Of a DNA stretch of 10,978 bases, positions 1 through 10,978 are shown piece by piece. Source of the DNA: an archaeon (lineage in GTDB: Archaea; Iainarchaeota; Iainarchaeia; Iainarchaeales; 1-14-0-10-31-34). The notes beneath the pieces are model-generated. The model saw nothing but the letters and a program-made list of their open reading frames with translations, was not told the origin of the DNA and made no database searches. Both the position numbers and the translations under genes were made by a program. Where the stretch lies: positions 1 through 10,978 of the forward strand of contig JBDRIL010000022.1 of NCBI GenBank assembly GCA_043815885.1, written 5' to 3'. Numbering within the stretch: position 1 is the stretch's first letter; each line of letters starts with the position of its first letter.

Positions 1-1302
1 ATGAAGAAAAACATATTTGTCCTGCTTTCAATTGTATTCCTTGCATTAAATGCCTATGCGCCAATTTCTTCCCAGGAAGCCAGAAACTTTATTGTAGCTG
101 AATCAAATTTCTTAGAGGCAGGAGACAGCATTGAAATCTATCCAAATTTTCCGGTTGCCTCGGGAGAGGAAAAGTATTGGGTGGCAGTAATCTCCACCTT
201 TGATGAATCAAGCGGTTTCCTTGCAGTAAAGTATTCAGAAAAAGAGTTATGCTTGGATGATTCAATTAACACTGATTTATTTGCAACTGTTTACATCCTT
301 AAATCAATTGAGGTCTATAAAGCTACTCCTACTTGGTTATTCTCTAATAACAATGCAGGATATTTTGAAAGCCTAGGCAAAACACTTTCATCCAATGAGG
401 CAAATGATTTAAGCATAATAGAGGGAAGTCTGAGTGGAAGCGAAGCAGAACAAAAAATTAATTCAATGCATTCAATGCTTAACTTAATGGAAGACCAGTC
501 AATAAAACTGAAGAATAAATTCATTTACATTCTTGAACTGGAAAATGAATTCATGAATTCCACTAACGTAAACCAGACAGATTCACTAAAGCAGGAATAC
601 GACAGGGCAACAGAGTTATTGAATGAATTCGAGTTAATGAGGATTGACTACGAGACAAAGGTAAAGGAATTGCAATCAATAATAAATAAATCTGATTTAG
701 AGCCAGGGGAAAAACAGCAGTTAGGCATTCTTGCAAATCCCCCGGGAGACTTAGCAAAGGTTTCTTCCCTTAAAAGCCAGGGAGACAGTCTGGGGCAGAG
801 AATAAATGAAGCCTATTCAAAAGCTGAATCGAATAAAAAGACATGGGTTGACAATGTAGGGGTGATGGTGAAGAGGGATGAGGCATATAATGTTCTTTAT
901 GGAGTGGATGAAGACTTATACAAGAAGACAGGTCAAACATATAATAAGATAAGTGATGCAGTGAGTGAAATTCTTTCAGATGCATTAAGGCCCTTCTGGA
1001 AGGAACAGGAGAGAGTGAATGATTTAAGGAGTACATGGAAGAAGGCAGAAAATGACTTTAATCAAAAAAATTATAAGTCAGTGGAAAGCTATGCAAGCAG
1101 GCTAAAGAACGACATAACAATAATAGTGGAGGGCGGATTTGCTGAAGAGGAACAGCCATTAAATGAAATGGCTTTTACAATTGCAATTGGATTAATTGTT
1201 TTGCTTGTGGTAATTGTAATTATAAAGAACAGGGAAAAGATATTCTCTATTGCAAAAGGAGAGGAAGAGGAGAAGGTAATAAATGAATGGAAGAAGATTT
1301 GA
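1..1302 (+). CDS. Hypothetical membrane-anchored surface protein (433 aa) with signal peptide, long helical/coiled-coil ectodomain and C-terminal TM helix
   Basis: N-terminus MKKNIFVLLSIVFLALNAYA is signal-peptide-like. The middle is E/K/L-rich and heptad-like. C-terminal hydrophobic run MAFTIAIGLIVLLVVIVII is followed by a charged tail. No family recognised; upstream sequence is outside the window. Confidence 0.8.
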   Translation: MKKNIFVLLSIVFLALNAYAPISSQEARNFIVAESNFLEAGDSIEIYPNFPVASGEEKYWVAVISTFDESSGFLAVKYSEKELCLDDSINTDLFATVYILKSIEVYKATPTWLFSNNNAGYFESLGKTLSSNEANDLSIIEGSLSGSEAEQKINSMHSMLNLMEDQSIKLKNKFIYILELENEFMNSTNVNQTDSLKQEYDRATELLNEFELMRIDYETKVKELQSIINKSDLEPGEKQQLGILANPPGDLAKVSSLKSQGDSLGQRINEAYSKAESNKKTWVDNVGVMVKRDEAYNVLYGVDEDLYKKTGQTYNKISDAVSEILSDALRPFWKEQERVNDLRSTWKKAENDFNQKNYKSVESYASRLKNDITIIVEGGFAEEEQPLNEMAFTIAIGLIVLLVVIVIIKNREKIFSIAKGEEEEKVINEWKKI

Positions 1303-2104
1303 ATTAATTTTATTCTGTTTAATTCTCTTTCCTTTAATGGTTAAAGCAGATATCCTTGCATCAGTGAATGCAAAAGGAATTCAAGGAATTACTTCTGTTT
1401 ATCCGGAAGAAACAACAGAATTTGAGGTAAGGTTTTTCAATAACAGCGAAGAAGGAGTGGAGAATTTAAAAGCAGAGGTTTCAGTGGACGAGGGATTAGC
1501 AATAGTTGAATTCTTTAAGCTGGAAAAAACAAAATGGATTGACATTGAATACATTCCTCCAAAAAAAGAAGTAGTCAGGAGCTTTAAGGTAAAGCCATTA
1601 ATGCAGGCAGAAAAACCAAAAATATATGTTACCTACGGAAAAGAGAGATATGAGAACACAGTGGCAACTTTTTTGGGGGTAGTTTCATCTCCATTGGAAG
1701 TAAATGCAGAACTCTCAAAGCAGAGGACAAGAGAGGCGGAAAGGAATTCAGTTAAAATGGAAGTAAAGAATATTGACGGAAACGAATTAAAGGACTTAAA
1801 TATTTTTCTCAATGGAGGAAAAATGATTTTAATTGAACCGCAAACCTTATTCAGGGAAACACTTGCTCCAGAAGAATCCATGAAAGGAGAATTCTTTTTT
1901 ACTCCTGATGCAACCGTATTTGGAGAAGAAAATGCAGTGCTGTCAATTTCATTTGAGGATGCAAATGGAATGCATGTAATTGAAAAAACATTTACAGTAA
2001 AGATAGAAGAAATTAATCTTCTTCCATATGCATTAATAACATTAGTGATAGTAGTAATTCTTTTCCTGTTCTTCTCCAGAAGAAAAAAAGCAGTTCAGGA
2101 ATAA
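1283..2104 (+). CDS. Hypothetical cell-surface protein (273 aa) with two Ig-like (CARDB/S-layer-associated-like) beta domains and a C-terminal TM anchor
   Basis: Hydrophobic N-terminus ending VKA. Two segments share the pattern 'V..N.....L.NL/DL.....' then 'I/L.P.E....F...P'. C-terminal LLPYALITLVIVVILFLFF is followed by SRRKK. Overlaps the upstream ORF by 20 nt, suggesting an operon. The fold call is by eye. Confidence 0.75.
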   Translation: MNGRRFELILFCLILFPLMVKADILASVNAKGIQGITSVYPEETTEFEVRFFNNSEEGVENLKAEVSVDEGLAIVEFFKLEKTKWIDIEYIPPKKEVVRSFKVKPLMQAEKPKIYVTYGKERYENTVATFLGVVSSPLEVNAELSKQRTREAERNSVKMEVKNIDGNELKDLNIFLNGGKMILIEPQTLFRETLAPEESMKGEFFFTPDATVFGEENAVLSISFEDANGMHVIEKTFTVKIEEINLLPYALITLVIVVILFLFFSRRKKAVQE

Positions 2105-3338: not shown

Positions 3339-3578
3339 ATGGAACTAAAAATTAACTGGAACCACAAGAGATGCAAGCATGCAATTGAAAGAATGTGGTT
3401 AAGAGGAATATCTCATTTGGAAATCAAGCAAGCGCTTTTGAAAGGGCAAAAAATAAAAAGAGGGATGGGTCTAATGGAATCAATTTATTCATATTACAGC
3501 GTTATTTATGTTGAAAGATTTTTTATGAGGAATACAATAAGAAAGGTTTATCCAATAACAGTAAAAATTATGGAGTGA
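3339..3578 (+). CDS. DUF4258-like (RelE/BrnT-fold) putative type II toxin, 79 aa
   Basis: Small basic protein with HAIERMWLRGIS..EI..AL..G and a C-terminal ITV motif typical of DUF4258. It lies directly upstream of an antitoxin-like gene. Confidence 0.8.
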   Translation: MELKINWNHKRCKHAIERMWLRGISHLEIKQALLKGQKIKRGMGLMESIYSYYSVIYVERFFMRNTIRKVYPITVKIME

Positions 3579-3583
3579 TTTGA

Positions 3584-3928
3584 ATGAAGGGAAAACTATT
3601 GTCTTTAACATGCTCTTGCGGGGGAAAAATGAAAAAGGCTTTTGTGCCGGTGGAATTCTTTGGAATAGATTTTGGTGTGAGAGAGGCAGAGGTATGCACT
3701 AAATGCAATGCGGAATACTTGGACGAAAAATTAATGGAAAAAATAGAAAAAGAGATAAAAAAGAAAGGATTGTTTGGCTTGGAATCAAAAGTGAAAGTAA
3801 CAAAATCAGGGAATTCACTGGTAATAAGAATTCCTCCGGAAATAGCAAAATTCACTGGCCTGAAATATGAGTCTTTACTCAGGATATTTCCTGTAGGCAA
3901 AAAAAGAATCGAAATAGAAGCCCTATAA
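3584..3928 (+). CDS. Putative antitoxin: YgiT/MqsA-type zinc finger fused to a C-terminal AbrB/MazE/SpoVT DNA-binding domain, 114 aa
   Basis: CSCGGKM...VCTKCNAEYLD zinc ribbon; KVTKSGNSLVIRIPPEIAK AbrB signature; SD-like GGAGTGA at 3572-3578; 5-nt gap from the toxin gene. Confidence 0.82.
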   Translation: MKGKLLSLTCSCGGKMKKAFVPVEFFGIDFGVREAEVCTKCNAEYLDEKLMEKIEKEIKKKGLFGLESKVKVTKSGNSLVIRIPPEIAKFTGLKYESLLRIFPVGKKRIEIEAL

Positions 3929-4014: not shown

Positions 4015-5916
4015 ATGGAATTAAAAGACATCTATTTTCGTTTTTCTTCTCCAAGGGAACAGCAAAAAGAATTGTTATTGGATACAGTCAATGCAATGCA
4101 GGAAGGAAAACACTTAGTAGCGCATGCCCCTACAGGTTTGGGGAAAACGGATTCAACCCTCTCTGCAGCAATAACTGTTGCATTAAAGGAAAACAAAACT
4201 GTTTTCTTTCTCACTCCAAAGATTTCACAGCACGAGATAGCGGTTCAGGTTGTCAGAGACATAGCAAAAAAATATAAACTGAATTTAAAGGCAGTGGATT
4301 TGGTTGGAAGGAGGTATGCCTGCACTGACCCAATTCTTGGAAGAAGTGATTTTGACGGATTCTATGAAATATGTGCAAGAAAAAGAAGAAACGAGGAATG
4401 CGTTTACTACAGGAATGCAAGAGGATATGAGAAAAAGGAAAGGGAAATAGCAAAACTTCATTTGGATAGAATGATGAAGAAGTATGAAACAGTATGGAGC
4501 CATCACGAAGTAAAGGAATACTGTGAGAATGAAAGGCCGATGTGTGCATACGAGGCATTGATTGAAATAGCAAAGAATTCAGACGTAATAATTGCTGACT
4601 ACTTTCATTTATTCAATCCCTCAATACAGGAAGTAATCCTCCCAAAATTAAAGGTAAAATTAGAGGATTCAATAATAGTAGTGGATGAAGCACACAATTT
4701 AGGGGACAGGATAAGAAACCTACTGTCTTCCACTGTTTCAAGCTTTTCTCTTAGAAGAGGAGAAGAAGAATTAAAGAAATTAAACAGAATGGATTTAGCT
4801 GAAAAACTGCATGAACTAGAAAAAATAATTAAAGGAATAGCAAGGCATTCACTGAAAGACAAAGGAGAAGAGGCATTGATTTCAAAGGAATCATTAATGA
4901 AACCATTGGATTCACTTGTACCTGAAATAGAAGAATTTGTTGAAGAATTGAGAGCGAATGCAACAGATTACATGGAAGCAACCTCCAAAACAAAATCTTC
5001 TTTGCTTCCAATAGCTAATTTCCTTGAGAAATGGCCGCAGGAACTGGAAGCGCATATAAGAATGATTAAGATGAATAGAGGAGGAAATTATGCTGTTTCA
5101 TTGAAGGCACTGGATCCAAGCATTGTCTCAAGAAAGATTTTTTCAAAAGCACATTCAGCAGTATTAATGAGTGGAACACTACTTCCAACAAAAATGTATG
5201 CAGACTTGCTGGGTTTGGAAGAAGAAAGAACTTTACTGAAAGAATATTCCTCTCCCTTTCCAAAGGAAAACAGAATGAATTTAATTGTTCCAACATCAAC
5301 CACAAAATACACTGAAAGAAAAACAGAGGAATTCAAGAAAATAGCAGAAGAGACAGCAAGAATAGTGAACAGTGTTCCGGGAAATTCAGCAGTATTCTTT
5401 CCTTCTTTTAAACTATTATCTCAAATCGAGCCATACATGGATGGGTTATGTAGAAGAGAGATGCTTATCCAGAAGGCGGGAATGAATTCAAATGAAATAA
5501 ATAATCTCTTGACTCACTTCAGGAATTCTGGAAGTGGTTTCGGCTCAGTTCTTCTTGCAGTGGCTCAAGGAAGTCTTGCTGAAGGAATCGATCTCCCTGG
5601 AAATCAGCTCTTGTGTGCAGTGATTGTTGGAATTCCTCTGGCAGAAATGAATCTGGAGATTAAATGCCTGATTGATTACTTTGAGGAAAAATTCCACAGG
5701 GGATGGCACTATGCATACATCTATCCTGCAGTCAATAAAGCAATCCAGGCAGGAGGAAGGGTAATAAGGGATGAAGGCGATGAAGGAATAGTTGTTTTTT
5801 TGGATAAAAGATATATCTGGAAGAATTACAGCAACTGCTTTCCAAAGGATTTCTCCAAAATAATCACAAGCGAACCAGAAAAATACGTTAAATTATTCTG
5901 GGAGAAAAAAGATTAA
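4015..5916 (+). CDS. xpd: XPD/Rad3/DinG-family Fe-S cluster ATP-dependent DNA helicase, 633 aa
   Basis: Q motif PREQQ; Walker A APTGLGKT; Fe-S cysteines (YAC, EIC, EEC, MCAY); DEAHNL; MSGTL; FFPSF; GSLAEGIDLPG; motif VI QAGGRVIR. Confidence 0.93.
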   Translation: MELKDIYFRFSSPREQQKELLLDTVNAMQEGKHLVAHAPTGLGKTDSTLSAAITVALKENKTVFFLTPKISQHEIAVQVVRDIAKKYKLNLKAVDLVGRRYACTDPILGRSDFDGFYEICARKRRNEECVYYRNARGYEKKEREIAKLHLDRMMKKYETVWSHHEVKEYCENERPMCAYEALIEIAKNSDVIIADYFHLFNPSIQEVILPKLKVKLEDSIIVVDEAHNLGDRIRNLLSSTVSSFSLRRGEEELKKLNRMDLAEKLHELEKIIKGIARHSLKDKGEEALISKESLMKPLDSLVPEIEEFVEELRANATDYMEATSKTKSSLLPIANFLEKWPQELEAHIRMIKMNRGGNYAVSLKALDPSIVSRKIFSKAHSAVLMSGTLLPTKMYADLLGLEEERTLLKEYSSPFPKENRMNLIVPTSTTKYTERKTEEFKKIAEETARIVNSVPGNSAVFFPSFKLLSQIEPYMDGLCRREMLIQKAGMNSNEINNLLTHFRNSGSGFGSVLLAVAQGSLAEGIDLPGNQLLCAVIVGIPLAEMNLEIKCLIDYFEEKFHRGWHYAYIYPAVNKAIQAGGRVIRDEGDEGIVVFLDKRYIWKNYSNCFPKDFSKIITSEPEKYVKLFWEKKD

Positions 5917-6836
5917 ATTCCCTTCAGGTATCTGAAAACATTTATTGCGGCTTTTGCTCCGTCACCTGCAGCAATAATTATCTGCTGTTCATTTCCAGCA
6001 ATATCTCCAGAAGCAAAAACCCCTTTCAACGAGGTTTCATTTCTTTCATTCACTTCAATAAAACCATTCTTATCCAATTTTATCCCTAAATTTTTTGCCA
6101 GCCCGTTATTCGGGATAACTCCAATTCTAATAAATACTCCGTCACATTTAATTTCTTCAATTTTTCCTGTTTCAGTATTTTTTGCCTTTATACCTTCCAC
6201 TTTTTCCTTTCCAAGAATTTCCTGCGTTAATAACTTATACATAACTTTAACATTTTTTGACCCCTCAATCCTCTTTAGATACGTTTTCTCTGCACTCAAT
6301 TCCCCTGCATTAGTAATTAGTATTACTTCCCTGCATATTTCACTCAGGTAAGTTGAAGCAATTGCCCCGCTGTTCCCTCCTCCGATTACTGCTACTCTTT
6401 TTCCTTTAAAAAAGAATCCATCGCATAAAGGACAATAGCTCACTCCCTTTCCTTTCAGTTCCTTTTCCCCTTTTACATTCAATTCCTTTTCCTTTGTTCC
6501 TGTTGCGAGAAGAATTGCCTTTGCTTCAATTTTTTTATTTTCAAAATCCAGTTCAAAGTAATTCTTTCCTTCCTTCTTTTCCTTTATTTCCTTTACCTCT
6601 CCAAAATTAATCTTTACTCCCAGTTCCTTTGCATGTTCTGCCATTTTTTTTGCCAATTCCTCTCCAGTGATGCTCGTAAAACCAGTATAATTCTCTATTA
6701 AGTGAGTTGTTGTTGGAGTTCCTCCCACTACCTTATTCTCAAACACCTCTGCCTTCAGTCCATTCCTTACTGCATATATTGCCGCAGTCAATCCACTTGG
6801 ACCCGAGCCAATCACAGCCAAATCAATTGAATCCAT
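5913..6836 (-). CDS. trxB: Thioredoxin reductase-like FAD-dependent disulfide oxidoreductase, 307 aa
   Basis: GSGPSG FAD motif; IENYTG; ATG; GKGVSYCPLCDG redox CxxC; GGGNSG; TSLKGVFASGD; AAGDGAKAA. Its stop overlaps the xpd stop (TTAA at 5913-5916). Confidence 0.92.
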   Translation of the reverse strand: MDSIDLAVIGSGPSGLTAAIYAVRNGLKAEVFENKVVGGTPTTTHLIENYTGFTSITGEELAKKMAEHAKELGVKINFGEVKEIKEKKEGKNYFELDFENKKIEAKAILLATGTKEKELNVKGEKELKGKGVSYCPLCDGFFFKGKRVAVIGGGNSGAIASTYLSEICREVILITNAGELSAEKTYLKRIEGSKNVKVMYKLLTQEILGKEKVEGIKAKNTETGKIEEIKCDGVFIRIGVIPNNGLAKNLGIKLDKNGFIEVNERNETSLKGVFASGDIAGNEQQIIIAAGDGAKAAINVFRYLKGI

Positions 6837-6903: not shown

Positions 6904-6971
6904 CAAAACCTTTAAATAGCTGAAAAACATTTATATTATCTTATATATAGAGTTTAGTTATAATAGGTGGA
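6904..6971 (+). promoter_or_regulatory. Tandem BRE/TATA-like elements and RBS for the exported-protein operon
   Basis: CAAAACC-TTTAAATA (6904-6918), GAAAAACA-TTTATATT (6922-6937), and SD-like AGGTGGA (6965-6971) before the ATG at 6975. Confidence 0.6.
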
Positions 6972-6974
6972 GAA

Positions 6975-8267
6975 ATGAAAAAGATTCTTTTATTCCTGAT
7001 ATTCGTTTTGCTGCTTTCCTTTGTTAATGCAAAAGAAAAGAGAATTGATATAGATGATTTCCAAAGGAAAGGTGATTTATTAGTTTATACAGACGGAGTA
7101 TCATTAGGTAATGATGATTCATTGGTTTTATATTACAAAGACTCCCCGAAATACTCTTTAACTGCAGAGATAGTATCAGGATTTTGGGGGGCGGATGTTA
7201 CTCTTTATTCAACAACTCATCCAGAAGCTAAACAGGAATCATGCAAGAAAACAGGAATGCTAGATATAGGGGTGGGGTACATGTTTAATATATATAGAAG
7301 TGAAGAATCATGCGGTTTTGATAAAGTCGATACTGATGCCTACAATATTTCTTATTCTTTTGGGTATTCTGCCTCATTTCTTGCAGCAGGAGATGCATTC
7401 ATAAATAAAATTGAGATTAAATCATCAGCTATAGAGGGGTTAGATGTTTCCTCAATTGGTAATGCAAAAGAAAAGAGAATTGATATAGAGAATTTCCAAA
7501 GGAAAGGCGATTTATTAATTTATACAAAAGGAGTATCTTTGGATTATGATGACTTATTGGTTTTATATTACAAGGACTCCCCGAAATACTCTTTAGCGCC
7601 ACTTACTGCAGCAGGATTTTTTGGGGGGGAGGTTACTCTATTCTCAACAACTCATCCAGAAAGCAAACAAGAATCATGCAAGAAAACAGGAATGGCAGAC
7701 ATAGGAGTGGGGTTTCTTAATTTCCATAGAAGTGAAGAATCATGCGGTTTTGATAAAGTCGATACTGATGCCTACAATATTTCTTATTCTTTTGGGTATT
7801 CTTTTACAACTGGAAATGTACTCATAAACAAAATTGAGATTAAATCATCAGCTATAGGGGATTTAGATGAGAAGCCGGTGACTATTCCTGACAACTCGGT
7901 TCCAGAGGTAAAAAATGTCAGGATTGATAAATCTAAACCATCAGTAGAAGATAATTTAGAATGTTTATATGATTATTCTGATGCAGATGACGACTATGAA
8001 GCAAAAGAGAAAACAAGTATTAGATGGTACAAGAAAGGTTTACTGCAATCAGGGTTAAAGGAAAAAATACTTGAATCAAAGTATACCGCTATAGGAGACC
8101 ACTGGTACTGTACAGTTACTCCTGTTGCAAATAAGGGAAGCACTCCAGGAAAAACCGTGAAAAGCAGTGAAGTATTGATTGAGGAAGTTAAACCCGAACC
8201 ACTTCAATTGAGTGAACTTAATGAAAGAATACTTTATTATTACAACAAAATATTTGAGGCAAAATAA
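6975..8267 (+). CDS. Secreted protein (430 aa): signal peptide, two tandem ~140-aa Cys-paired domains and an Ig-like (AIR9/A9-like) domain
   Basis: Signal peptide MKKILLFLIFVLLLSFVNA; obvious internal duplication. Region 7902-8180 has the pattern L.C.Y.Y.D.D.D.E.....S..RWY...T..GD...C.VTP....G....S..V seen in A9-type Ig repeats (by eye). Confidence 0.85.
   Translation: MKKILLFLIFVLLLSFVNAKEKRIDIDDFQRKGDLLVYTDGVSLGNDDSLVLYYKDSPKYSLTAEIVSGFWGADVTLYSTTHPEAKQESCKKTGMLDIGVGYMFNIYRSEESCGFDKVDTDAYNISYSFGYSASFLAAGDAFINKIEIKSSAIEGLDVSSIGNAKEKRIDIENFQRKGDLLIYTKGVSLDYDDLLVLYYKDSPKYSLAPLTAAGFFGGEVTLFSTTHPESKQESCKKTGMADIGVGFLNFHRSEESCGFDKVDTDAYNISYSFGYSFTTGNVLINKIEIKSSAIGDLDEKPVTIPDNSVPEVKNVRIDKSKPSVEDNLECLYDYSDADDDYEAKEKTSIRWYKKGLLQSGLKEKILESKYTAIGDHWYCTVTPVANKGSTPGKTVKSSEVLIEEVKPEPLQLSELNERILYYYNKIFEAK
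7025..7869 (+). repeat. Intragenic tandem duplication: about 7025-7446 and 7460-7869 (435-nt offset at the 5' end)
   Basis: Both units begin TAATGCAAAAGAAAAGAGAATTGATATAGA and end near ATTGAGATTAAATCATCAGCTATAG. A 77-nt block is identical (7294-7370 = 7726-7802). Confidence 0.97.
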
Positions 8268-8878
8268 TGAATAAATCAATGATGATTGCAGGAATTGTCG
8301 TTATTGCAGTAATTGCAGTAGCAATCTATTTATTTCTCCCAAAAGAGGGAGTTGAAAAAGAGCTTTCCTTTGGGGAAGGATTGAATGAAATCAATTCTAT
8401 CTGGAGCAAGAACAATATTTCTCCAGGCAGCCTGAAATATGAAGCTGATTTAGATAAAATAGATGCTTCTTCATTAAATTCACTTAAGGATGATTTAATT
8501 TCCTTTAAGTCATCACTTTCTTCTTTTTCTCAAACCAATGAAGTTCAAGCCCTGGATAACTTAATTGAAGTTGAATTAGATTTAATTGATGCATCTGTTT
8601 CAAGAAAGAAGGTTTCCTCTGGAATGGCTTTCCTTGATTCAATTGAATATGATGCAGATAAAATGTGTGAGAATTTACCTAAAGTAGAGGGCATTGTTGA
8701 AGATATTGAGGAAGGATTCACTCAAACAAATTCCTATAACGATAAATTGCTTTTATTCTCCCAAGAAAACCCCCCAGAATCAACACAGGCAGGATTACAG
8801 GAATTAAACACAAATGTAACAGAACAAAAAATAAAGGATTTGAAGGATTCATTAAGTAATCTTAAGGTGAGTTGCTGA
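8267..8878 (+). CDS. Hypothetical N-terminally membrane-anchored, acidic helical protein, 203 aa
   Basis: Hydrophobic MMIAGIVVIAVIAVAIYLFL followed by an amphipathic helical ectodomain with two Cys. TAATG stop/start overlap with the upstream gene. Confidence 0.8.
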   Translation: MNKSMMIAGIVVIAVIAVAIYLFLPKEGVEKELSFGEGLNEINSIWSKNNISPGSLKYEADLDKIDASSLNSLKDDLISFKSSLSSFSQTNEVQALDNLIEVELDLIDASVSRKKVSSGMAFLDSIEYDADKMCENLPKVEGIVEDIEEGFTQTNSYNDKLLLFSQENPPESTQAGLQELNTNVTEQKIKDLKDSLSNLKVSC

Positions 8879-8889
8879 AAGGTGAATGA

Positions 8890-10978
8890 ATGAATAAAAA
8901 AATTATTTTCACTTCTTTTACTATCTTATTTCTAATCACAATTATTAGTTCAGCTTACGCTGAAACGTTTAACTTTAATGTGGGGGGAGAAAAAACAGTC
9001 TACCAAAAAGAAGGAATTACAATAAAAGTAGAATACGATGGATCTGGGCTTGGATTTCCTACAGGAAAAAGATTTGCAGGCATTAGGGCAAAAATCATGG
9101 TTCAGGGAGAGGAAACAGAACTGGATTGTTCTAAATTGCCCTTTGTTTTTAGGGCCGAGCTTAGTCAGGGGGAAACTGCAACCTGTAATATTGAAGCAGC
9201 TTACTTAGGTGTTTTTGGGAGAGAGGATAAGGTTCTGGATTTAAAGTTGACTGCTTTGGATGAAGAATCTTCTCAGCACCCGATTTCTCTTGAAGTCAAT
9301 GTGATTCCTCATGAAGAACTCATTAAGTTATTTGCTGCCAAAGCCTTTGAAGCCGAAGTCAAGACAATTGACCATAAATCCAAGGAATTTAAGGAAATGA
9401 AGCAAGGAGACGTCAGGTTATTGGAGGAAGGATACTACGTTAAGTTGAATACACTGGAATTCAGTTACAATTATTTCTCTAAAGCGGTTTTTTCTTTTTC
9501 AAGGGATTCAAGAGGAAGCGGGGAGATCTGTAAATTCTCGTTGTCGGATTGTGATGCGTTTACAGGATGCAAGTTTGTAAATGGCTGCTCCAAGTTCCTG
9601 GAATTAGAAATAAAAGATTATTTTGTTCCAAGCGAAGGCTTTTTTCCAGCAACTGACAGGATAAGTTTCTGGCTTTACTACAAGTTTATTGGTGAACCCC
9701 CAATAGTACCAATTATTCCATTGAATGAAATGCAGAAGGAAATAGATAACAAGGCATTAAATTATTATAATTGTTTTTTAAACAAAGAGAACTGTGTTGG
9801 GATTGATAAGAAAATTGTCGATGCGTATGGAGGAGAATGTGATGCCGAGATGGAAAAAGCAAGAGGGATTGAAAAAACAATTAATGAAAATGACAATGGA
9901 ATGGAAGCTGATTTAATCAGGGCAATTATTACAATTGAAAGTAATTGGAATCCTAATGCACAAAATCCTCCTTCTTACGGAATAATGCAGGTTACAAGGC
10001 AAAACCTTCAATGCGGCCCATGGAGTAATATGATTGGAAATGATTGCAACAAACAAAGTGGCACTATATGGGATAATTACTGGTCTTATTGGACTGACGC
10101 ATCGAAAAACATTAACAGGGGAACGAAGATTTACAATGAATACGCTGAAGCAGAAATACAAAGACTGGTTTTTAATAAAGGATGCAATGATATTGAGCTC
10201 CAAAACGCAAAACAAAACTGGAGCACTGCCTTAAATCTAGGGGCTTACAATGCTGGGCCAGGATACATTAAATGTGATTCCATTCCAGAAACAGCCGGCT
10301 TGGCAGAGCCAAAAAAATATGCGGAAATGGTTCTGGCTTGGCACAGAGTGTTTGCTGAAAACTATGGAAAGAAAGGACAGGAAGGTTATTGCCAGGCAAG
10401 AGAAGAGCCTTTGCCTGATACTGGTTTTTGTCTTCATGCTGTTAAAGAGAAAGAAGGAAATAAGATTTGTGTTGGTGAAAAAGGAAAAGAAGTTAACCCA
10501 AAAGAAGAGTGTATCACTATTAAAGGCGAAGAAAAGTATCCTTGCATTGAAAAAGAAGACTTATCTAATATGCATGTTTGTGTTGAGCAGGATGGAAGGC
10601 CTTTGACTTGTTCTCCTGATGGTAAGCCTTATTTGGTTGAGGGTTTGGTTAAGGGTAAGACTATTAAGGTTAAGTTCATTAACCTTTCTTCTAAGGAGAA
10701 GCCTATTTTTATTGGTTTTAATGGGAATAAACCGTTTAAGGATGTGTCTAGGAATTTGGCTGAGTTTACTGATTCGATTTTGGATGCTGATTCCTGTGAG
10801 TTTTCTTTGTTGTCAGAGCAAAAGTATAATGGTTTTGAGAGTGGTTCTTTCGAGTTTACGATAACTGATTGGACTGGAGAAGAGTTTGAAATTTATGGTT
10901 GTCAGGATAAGGATGGCGATGGAAGTTGTCTGTATCCTACTAGTAAGACTGATGGATTGTATGTTGAGCCTTCTTATG
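8890..10978 (+). CDS. Secreted multidomain Cys-rich protein with an SLT/GH23 lytic transglycosylase domain (>=696 aa, truncated by the window end; not in the ORF track)
   Basis: Hand translation is open from ATG 8890 to the window end. GGTGA RBS at 8881-8885; signal peptide MNKKIIFTSFTILFLITIISSAYA. SLT motifs: LIRAIITIESNWNPNA (Glu codon 9937-9939), YGIMQV (GIMQ 9979-9990), DASKNINRGTKIY (10096-10134), GAYNAGPG (10240-10263), EPKKYAEMVL (10306-10335). Confidence 0.9.
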   Translation, partial: MNKKIIFTSFTILFLITIISSAYAETFNFNVGGEKTVYQKEGITIKVEYDGSGLGFPTGKRFAGIRAKIMVQGEETELDCSKLPFVFRAELSQGETATCNIEAAYLGVFGREDKVLDLKLTALDEESSQHPISLEVNVIPHEELIKLFAAKAFEAEVKTIDHKSKEFKEMKQGDVRLLEEGYYVKLNTLEFSYNYFSKAVFSFSRDSRGSGEICKFSLSDCDAFTGCKFVNGCSKFLELEIKDYFVPSEGFFPATDRISFWLYYKFIGEPPIVPIIPLNEMQKEIDNKALNYYNCFLNKENCVGIDKKIVDAYGGECDAEMEKARGIEKTINENDNGMEADLIRAIITIESNWNPNAQNPPSYGIMQVTRQNLQCGPWSNMIGNDCNKQSGTIWDNYWSYWTDASKNINRGTKIYNEYAEAEIQRLVFNKGCNDIELQNAKQNWSTALNLGAYNAGPGYIKCDSIPETAGLAEPKKYAEMVLAWHRVFAENYGKKGQEGYCQAREEPLPDTGFCLHAVKEKEGNKICVGEKGKEVNPKEECITIKGEEKYPCIEKEDLSNMHVCVEQDGRPLTCSPDGKPYLVEGLVKGKTIKVKFINLSSKEKPIFIGFNGNKPFKDVSRNLAEFTDSILDADSCEFSLLSEQKYNGFESGSFEFTITDWTGEEFEIYGCQDKDGDGSCLYPTSKTDGLYVEPSY

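Follow-up and report, generated by a model that had tools for sequence, protein, structure and literature searches.

A candidate three-gene surface operon of an Iainarchaeales archaeon encodes an SLT/GH23 protein and a small membrane-anchored protein of an uncharacterized family

The stretch of DNA analysed here, called the window throughout, is the entire contig C22 (GenBank JBDRIL010000022.1; 10,978 nt) of a groundwater archaeon of the order Iainarchaeales, the genome of which amounts to 1.16 Mb in 62 contigs with an estimated completeness of 91.7%. Three open reading frames (ORFs) on the + strand, here named A, B and C, fill positions 6975-10978. Gene A codes for a predicted secreted, beta-rich protein, gene B for a small membrane-anchored protein, and gene C for a large exported protein that carries what is, judged by its motifs, a catalytically intact SLT domain. 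Protein B belongs to a family of proteins which, across the order, are mostly encoded directly in front of large secreted proteins, some of them with peptidoglycan-hydrolase domains. The features of the locus are as follows.

6911-6918, + strand: TATA-box-like element TTTAAATA, 57 nt 5' of the ATG of A, matching the archaeal TATA consensus
6966-6972, + strand: Shine-Dalgarno-like GGTGGAG preceding gene A, read from the sequence
6975-8267, + strand: gene A, ORF of 430 aa
6975-7031, + strand: predicted signal peptide of A (residues 1-19), sharing 67% identity (BLASTP, hhalign) with those of the A' proteins introduced below
7021-7869, + strand: tandem duplication within A, with copies at 7021-7446 and 7456-7869 (repeat families D1-D3)
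8208-8258, + strand: C-terminal helix of A with the motif N..(I/V)L..Y..(I/V)(F/M), common to the tails of the A' proteins
8267-8878, + strand: gene B, ORF of 203 aa
8881-8885, + strand: Shine-Dalgarno-like GGTGA within the spacer between B and C
8890-10978, + strand: first 696 codons of gene C (ORF 8890-10977), without a stop before the contig end
9886-10269, + strand: SLT/GH23 lytic transglycosylase domain of C (residues 333-460 by Pfam; homology with relatives over residues ~314-505)
10558-10977, + strand: Cys-containing domain of C (residues ~557-696), 27-42% identical to C-type proteins of relatives

Both the ORFs and the sequence confirmed the original prediction of three co-oriented and tightly coupled genes. 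The TAA stop of A (8265-8267) overlaps the ATG of B (8267-8269), forming TAATG at 8265-8269, and GGTGA lies inside an 11-nt spacer between B and C (8879-8889; aaggtgaatga). The element TTTAAATA at 6911-6918 is the probable promoter of A-B-C, and we infer from this layout that the three genes are co-transcribed as one unit. The element at 6911-6918 is one of four exact matches to TTTAWATA in the window, all of them intergenic and none inside A-B-C, and this count is at chance level (shuffle mean 2.77). A scan of the window for bacterial promoters and terminators, with models that are ill-suited to archaea, gave results at chance level only. A 1292-nt contig from the sequencing runs covers the end of A, the whole of B and the start of C; it is DNA and carries no transcript information. 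Export signals were read by eye from the translations, revealing cleavable-looking signal peptides in A (MKKILLFLIFVLLLSFVNA, predicted cut before KEK) and in C (MNKKIIFTSFTILFLITIISSAYA, predicted cut before ETF) and an uncleaved-looking anchor in B, where residues 6-24 form the hydrophobic segment. An N-terminal signal or anchor segment is therefore present in each of the three products, as had been predicted.

Residues 333-460 of C match the SLT family PF01464 with 28.9 bits (cut-off 21.3; E = 8.9e-7), and the genome-level search gave 30.5 bits, likewise above the cut-off, so that the assignment of C as an SLT protein stands. The E-S, GxMQ and AYNxG motifs of the domain are intact, and E350-S351, S362-Y-G-I-M-Q367 and Y453-N454 were invariant in six aligned sequences (C and five relatives). 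Comparison of a profile of the domain with solved structures led to matches with MltC (1.2e-8), goose-type lysozyme (2.4e-7) and EmtA (1.7e-6), and a search of the PDB with the single sequence of the SLT region returned spurious matches only. The ESSF stretch of C aligns to IESSF of MltC, whose glutamate we take to be the catalytic residue of that enzyme. The nearest bacterial relatives are only 25-28% identical to the domain. The product released by C may be either an anhydro-muropeptide, as for a transglycosylase, or a hydrolysis product, as for a lysozyme.

Gene C runs past the end of the window, as had been suspected for the operon. The window ends in 121 nt that are found, letter for letter, at the reverse-complemented end of contig C46, and the frame of C stays open across this overlap; nine further contig joins in the same assembly have overlaps of 141 nt. 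In a relative, the protein runs straight across the sequence equivalent to the C22/C46 junction (LYVEPSC-EAASITI). From the 121-nt overlap, the open frame and the read-through of the relative, we infer a join in the assembly by which C continues for about 196 residues on C46 to reach a total of about 892 aa. For the Cys-containing domain at residues ~557-696 no Pfam family was found at E ≤ 5. A second SLT-like segment of C (positions 19290-20000, - strand, of locus L004 on C46) aligns to the SLT domain of relatives and lacks exactly the catalytic E-S and GLMQ stretch, the intact copy being located further upstream in C. The protein ends in a Cys-rich tail, CxxCxxxxxCLACxDYxFxxGVF, which was kept in all seven family proteins compared, and a weaker form of this motif was found in 12 of the 27 loci of the order described below. 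A weak, sub-threshold SLT-like match was also observed elsewhere in the genome, at C14:9035-9169.

On the 3' side of the C stop there is a T-run and a TATA-like box, followed 88 nt on and on the same strand by a gene for a TrmB-family regulator (PF01978, 75.2 bits against a cut-off of 25.6; Regulator_TrmB, 24.7 bits against 22.2). Beyond it, three convergent genes code for Ig-like (immunoglobulin-like), C-terminally anchored surface proteins. These genes take the place of the pilins, secretion ATPases or further hydrolases that the original prediction had considered downstream of the operon; none of these, and no pore-forming genes, were detected in the 20 kb examined 3' of C.

Protein B consists of an N-terminal membrane helix and an all-helical outer domain with two cysteines, Cys134 and Cys203, the latter being the last residue. 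No Pfam or NCBIfam family was found for it. A profile built from 13 relatives retrieved 216 cluster representatives (E ≤ 1e-3) among 1.84 billion, nearly all of them of about 200 aa, with B of the window as the top-scoring member (E = 6.4e-69). Both Cys134 and Cys203 were invariant across 60 sequences of this family, and none of the 60 members (0/60) shared a Pfam family. A word-based protein search with B returned B alone; this method missed relatives of 30-42% identity that other tools found. Within the order, the family occurs in 102 of 196 genomes and in 54 of 73 genera, with one to four copies per genome. A phylum-wide search added seven genomes from families outside the order sample, none of which (0/7) had a match, and seven extra genomes are too few to set the limits of the B family. 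In a phylogenetic tree, B of the window groups with the B of genome G002 (support 92/90), and the tree supports no particular placement of it relative to the sister-genus clades B1 and B2. The AlphaFold2 model of B (mean pLDDT 87.9) shows the N-terminal helix followed by a helical bundle. Foldseek comparison of this model with the PDB gave nothing at E ≤ 0.001, and VIA-align found its best match in spectrin repeats with a Z of 8.7, which is in the range usual for helical bundles. When residues 28-203 of B were modelled as a complex with the last 197 residues of C, the prediction scored 0.02 against a mark of 0.32, using alignments of 13 and 7 rows and without controls, a score that speaks neither for nor against an interaction. 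A second, divergent B-family gene is present in the same genome (G000:C50:13787-14365, + strand); it codes for 192 aa and matches the B profile with E = 2e-19.

The linkage between B and C is retained in relatives. Each of the eight other genomes of the family to which the archaeon belongs has a B homologue on the same strand as a C homologue and a few kb 5' of it. Four genomes of a sister genus contain the order B1-A'-B2-C'-(TrmB), whose genes overlap at their stop and start codons or lie 0-1 nt apart; A'-B2-C' mirrors the order A-B-C. Two more contigs terminate within the same cluster. An SLT domain was present in all three sister-genus C proteins scanned (3/3). One family genome has B-C''-TrmB only, where C'' is without the SLT domain and keeps the Cys domain and the tail. 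The synteny foreseen for the three genes thus holds for B and C, and for an A-B-C-like order with A' in the first position, and not for A itself, for which no homologue was found. Homologues of the 625-aa surface protein adjoining the cassette were present in 13 of the 27 loci of the order described next.

In order to describe the neighbourhood of B genes across the order, 40 B genes from 27 loci in 20 families were considered, and a neighbour was counted as large and secreted when its ORF had 300 aa or more, carried a hydrophobic segment near the N-terminus and followed within 150 nt on the same strand. Such an ORF follows 33 of the 40 B genes, compared to 35 of 350 other genes in the same loci, and 25 of the 33 pairs overlap. 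Outside the family, 35 B-linked proteins were scanned and six had a Pfam family at E ≤ 1e-5, five of these six with peptidoglycan-hydrolase domains. They include a protein with Amidase_3 (E = 8e-34) together with PKD and with a glucosaminidase match below its cut-off, another with Amidase_3 (E = 3.5e-16), a 2291-aa protein with Amidase_2 plus SLT, and a 1903-aa protein with SLT (E = 2.7e-20); the sixth of the Pfam-positive proteins carries PKD only. One of the eight family genomes carries an expanded cassette at locus L029 (G003:C19, 2303-13836), which holds a shorter B-like gene besides two near-identical B copies and codes for four large secreted proteins. A Lon-protease-type domain (E = 1.7e-7) forms the end of one of the four, and in two of them the Cys-rich tail motif is internal.

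A thioredoxin-reductase-like gene (window 5913-6836, - strand) is located divergently 5' of the cassette. Similar genes of about 311 aa lie divergently 5' of B genes at loci L033 and L039, which belong to other families, as judged from C-terminal sequences alone. A link of this reductase-like gene to the Cys-rich exported proteins is possible.

The architecture of A comprises the predicted signal peptide, two tandem copies of a domain of about 145 aa, an Ig-like-looking domain and the C-terminal helix. The duplication that had been noted in A is real and recent: the copies are 85-97% identical in nucleotides and their differences are concentrated in three patches. Between the copies, synonymous divergence (dS) is 0.25 and nonsynonymous divergence (dN) 0.16, and the resulting ratio of about 0.63 is no evidence for positive selection, so that the term "variable loops" used in the original prediction stays descriptive; the divergence is suggestive of relaxed or diversifying change and does not amount to proof. 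The Ig label given to the last domain fared less uniformly. Language-model features place it nearest to clusters in which 10-54% of the members are Ig_2, Big_9 or PKD proteins (scores 0.91-0.95), which makes its Ig-like nature a lead, and Pfam contributed nothing at E ≤ 5. For A as a whole, no Pfam family (even at E ≤ 5) and no NCBIfam family was found. Only A itself was retrieved from the nine genomes of the family, and likewise from 5.8 billion clustered proteins in a word-based search of limited sensitivity. A single-sequence AlphaFold2 model of A was unusable (mean pLDDT 33.4), and the Atlas model was poor (pLDDT 0.64; TM-score < 0.4 to anything). A helix at residues 412-428 is seen in a low-confidence model.

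In the four sister-genus genomes, the position in front of B2 is occupied by A', a secreted protein of 339-408 aa that is unrelated to A. When A was compared with the four A' proteins by hhalign, the alignment was confined to residues 1-24, that is to the signal peptide (E = 2.7e-6). A regular expression for the C-terminal motif, built from the same five tails (A and the four A'), matched one of 2954 ORFs of the genome, namely A, and among 404 ORFs of the 27 loci matched the four A' alone; since the motif was derived from these five tails, only its rarity elsewhere is evidence. The conserved ends and the replaced middle of A and A' suggest a slot for exchangeable proteins.

What C might act on can be approached from the gene content of the genome and of the sister cassettes. 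In the genome (91.7% complete), no transpeptidase, no Amidase_2 and no Amidase_3 was found in the searches, and the single Mur-ligase-type match is of a kind also seen in wall-less control archaea. With no murein synthesis evident in its own genome, the substrate of C is probably foreign. Muramoyl-alanine amidases cut the bond between N-acetylmuramic acid (MurNAc) and L-alanine, which is specific to bacterial murein. Because sister cassettes carry such amidases and the genome lacks evident murein synthesis of its own, bacterial peptidoglycan is the likeliest substrate of C, and bacteria would be the target.

Taken together, these data incline us, with a confidence slightly better than even, to the reading that A-B-C is one transcription unit for cell-surface proteins aimed at bacterial peptidoglycan. 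According to this model, a single promoter would drive A, B and C, and all three products would cross the membrane by the Sec route. The effector would be C, a Sec-exported protein of about 892 aa that would cut the glycan strands of bacterial murein. Protein B would be a dedicated companion with type-II membrane topology, its helical domain lying outside and being stapled by a disulfide between the conserved cysteines. Stop and start codons that overlap or nearly do so would couple its synthesis to that of the neighbouring secreted protein, which B would hold or mature on the outer side of the membrane; a role as chaperone or dock is the most likely one for B. Protein A is probably a binding or specificity subunit, encoded in a fast-changing slot that would be framed by the conserved signal peptide and the C-terminal helix. 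Since A is without homologues, the idea that it binds a target cell is conjecture.

Several observations weigh against this model. The fold of B is a generic helical bundle without an informative match, and the second B-family gene of the genome lies directly after dnaK and dnaJ and not beside a gene for a secreted protein. A B-like gene in the same dnaK/dnaJ context was observed at locus L051 of a relative. Seven of the 40 B genes are without a large secreted neighbour, and the 33 that have one come from related, non-independent genomes and from loci picked around B hits, with longest-ORF starts that may inflate the overlaps. As 29 of the 35 B-linked proteins scanned had no significant Pfam family, "peptidoglycan" may fit only some of the cassettes. 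Nor is B an obligate partner of SLT proteins: of 69 SLT matches in the order, at least 12 share a contig with a listed B gene at a distance of no more than 8 kb, a minimum in view of the short contigs and of 27 further B matches outside the list, and most SLT ORFs of the order are small (about 250-420 aa) and stand apart from B. A few giant SLT ORFs of up to 3466 aa were also seen in the order. Gene A, for its part, is tied to B and C by its position, by a signal peptide 67% identical to those of A', and by a motif derived from the same five sequences. Finally, family GH23 also holds enzymes that act on polymers of N-acetylglucosamine (GlcNAc) other than murein.

The best-surviving alternative, which we judge unlikely and yet worth taking seriously, is that the cassette serves scavenging. 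The archaeon would then be a free-living or loosely associated fermenter feeding on the amino sugars and peptides that the cassette releases from debris of bacterial walls, no cell-to-cell apparatus would exist, and B would merely aid secretion or folding. The enzyme domains are equally compatible with such a life, and the 20 kb examined downstream contain no pilus, secretion-ATPase or pore-forming genes. For another DPANN group, the peptidoglycan of dead bacteria has been proposed as a source of amino acids, according to the relevant portion of PMC11537232. However, the conserved tail of C, the C-terminal motif of A and the membrane-anchored neighbour fit display at the surface better than free release, and the cassette adjoins genes for surface proteins such as the 625-aa protein with its recurrent homologues.

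We consider it improbable that the SLT domain acts on a glycan other than murein, be it the pseudomurein of a methanogen host, a chitin-like polymer, or glycans on the archaeon's own surface while its envelope is being remodelled. GH23 includes chitin-active members. Archaea are without murein, the identity of the domain to its nearest bacterial relatives is low, and its profile scores fall between lytic transglycosylases and goose-type lysozymes. However, the catalytic motifs of C are those of murein-active family-1 enzymes, and the sister cassettes carry Amidase_2 and Amidase_3, which are directed at the murein-specific MurNAc-L-Ala bond. There is equally little in favor of the view that the three envelope genes simply adjoin one another, with a promoter and no function in common and with a general membrane role for B: it would accommodate the missing homologues of A, the B paralogues away from secreted proteins and the SLT genes of the order, most of which are not near B, but it is at odds with the eight-fold enrichment of large secreted ORFs after B, mostly overlapping and spread over 20 families, and with the B-C order kept in 8/8 family genomes.

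Beyond the model of a peptidoglycan-directed surface operon, a bolder extension, to which we give little credence at present, is that B proteins are the cognate docks or chaperones of a modular, cargo-swappable surface "rack" in Iainarchaeales, which would play in archaea the part of a cohesin-dockerin or polymorphic-effector system. Secreted proteins with no relationship to each other would have a conserved signal peptide at one end and a conserved docking motif at the C-terminus (the helix in A-type proteins, the CxxC...CLACxDYKF tail in C-type proteins), and each cargo would come with its own B copy. Archaea equipped in this way could quickly exchange modules that cut or bind bacterial walls.

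A comparable division of labour is known from bacteria. Lif of Pseudomonas and Burkholderia is a lipase-specific foldase that is membrane-anchored and encoded beside its secreted client. By analogy, B shares with Lif the N-terminal anchor, the all-helical outer domain and a gene that adjoins, and is apparently co-expressed with, that of one secreted enzyme. In contrast to Lif, no match to which emerged from the Pfam, NCBIfam and fold searches, B comprises about 200 aa, has a conserved Cys pair and is found next to diverse clients. Concerning the enzyme, C shares the GH23 signature (the Glu of E-S, GLMQ and AYNxG) with MltC, EmtA/MltE and goose-type lysozymes (PDB 9vi7, 4c5f, 2y8p, 3gxk), but this similarity is distant and apparent at the profile level only, and in C the domain sits in a multidomain archaeal protein.

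The original prediction had recognized no named system with this layout, which was overstated, since large extracellular SLT proteins of DPANN archaea have been published. In the sections concerned, PMC8204110 describes such proteins from Pace- and Woesearchaeota and proposes that they bind or degrade bacterial walls, GH23 proteins in DPANN archaea are given the same anti-bacterial reading in the corresponding part of Vigneron et al. (2022; PMC9723730), and passages of PMC10936187 and PMC11537232 also mention large extracellular SLT proteins of DPANN archaea. With the fam00969-type proteins, as outlined in PMC8204110, C has in common that a DPANN archaeon without murein encodes a large signal-peptide protein with an SLT/GH23 domain. 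It differs from them in length, with about 892 aa compared to up to 3,000 aa in the portions of PMC8204110 and PMC9723730 that deal with them, and in lineage, as the closest relatives of C are found in metagenome-assembled genomes labelled Iainarchaeum, Diapherotrites or Micrarchaeota and not in Pace- or Woesearchaeota. Neither the B partner nor the Cys-rich tail nor the variable A slot appears in the sections of PMC8204110 and PMC9723730 compared, where the comparison is by description. Full-text literature that links Diapherotrites or Iainarchaeota to transglycosylases, murein or amidases, as covered by listings and selected passages, gave no description of the cassette or of a B-like partner. 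What is new is the B family, the end motifs (the C tail and the A helix) and the lineage, and what is known is the existence of large extracellular SLT proteins in DPANN archaea.

Some further observations concern the contig and the genome at large. Other genes on the contig code, according to Pfam, for a DRG-type GTPase, an XPD-type helicase and the thioredoxin-reductase-like flavoprotein; along with the size of the genome, they are in keeping with a DPANN archaeon. At the beginning of the window (1-2104), overlapping genes of 433 aa and 273 aa code for surface-type proteins that begin with a signal-like segment and end in a hydrophobic anchor, and for which no significant Pfam family was found. 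At 3339-3928 (+ strand), a 79-aa gene with a weak DUF4258 match adjoins a 114-aa gene whose product weakly matches the MazE/AbrB type and has Cys pairs as in a zinc ribbon, both matches being below the cut-off; the two genes may form a toxin-antitoxin pair. On C46, the gene for S-adenosylmethionine synthetase (L004 10074-12839, - strand) contains an in-frame intein with a LAGLIDADG endonuclease domain. Its Pfam matches are S-AdoMet_synt N, M and C together with LAGLIDADG_3 and Intein_splicing, and the copy of a relative (L033) has 386 aa and is without the insert.

How DPANN archaea physically engage with other cells is barely known, and some of them may live on bacteria instead of archaea. 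The locus described here offers parts that can be tested, namely an intact murein-type glycosidase domain, a small membrane partner, and short end-motifs on unrelated secreted proteins. The B partner is present in about half the genomes of one archaeal order. If B does act as a dock or chaperone, B genes would mark the secreted "interaction proteome" of these archaea in metagenomes, including cargo without any recognizable domain.

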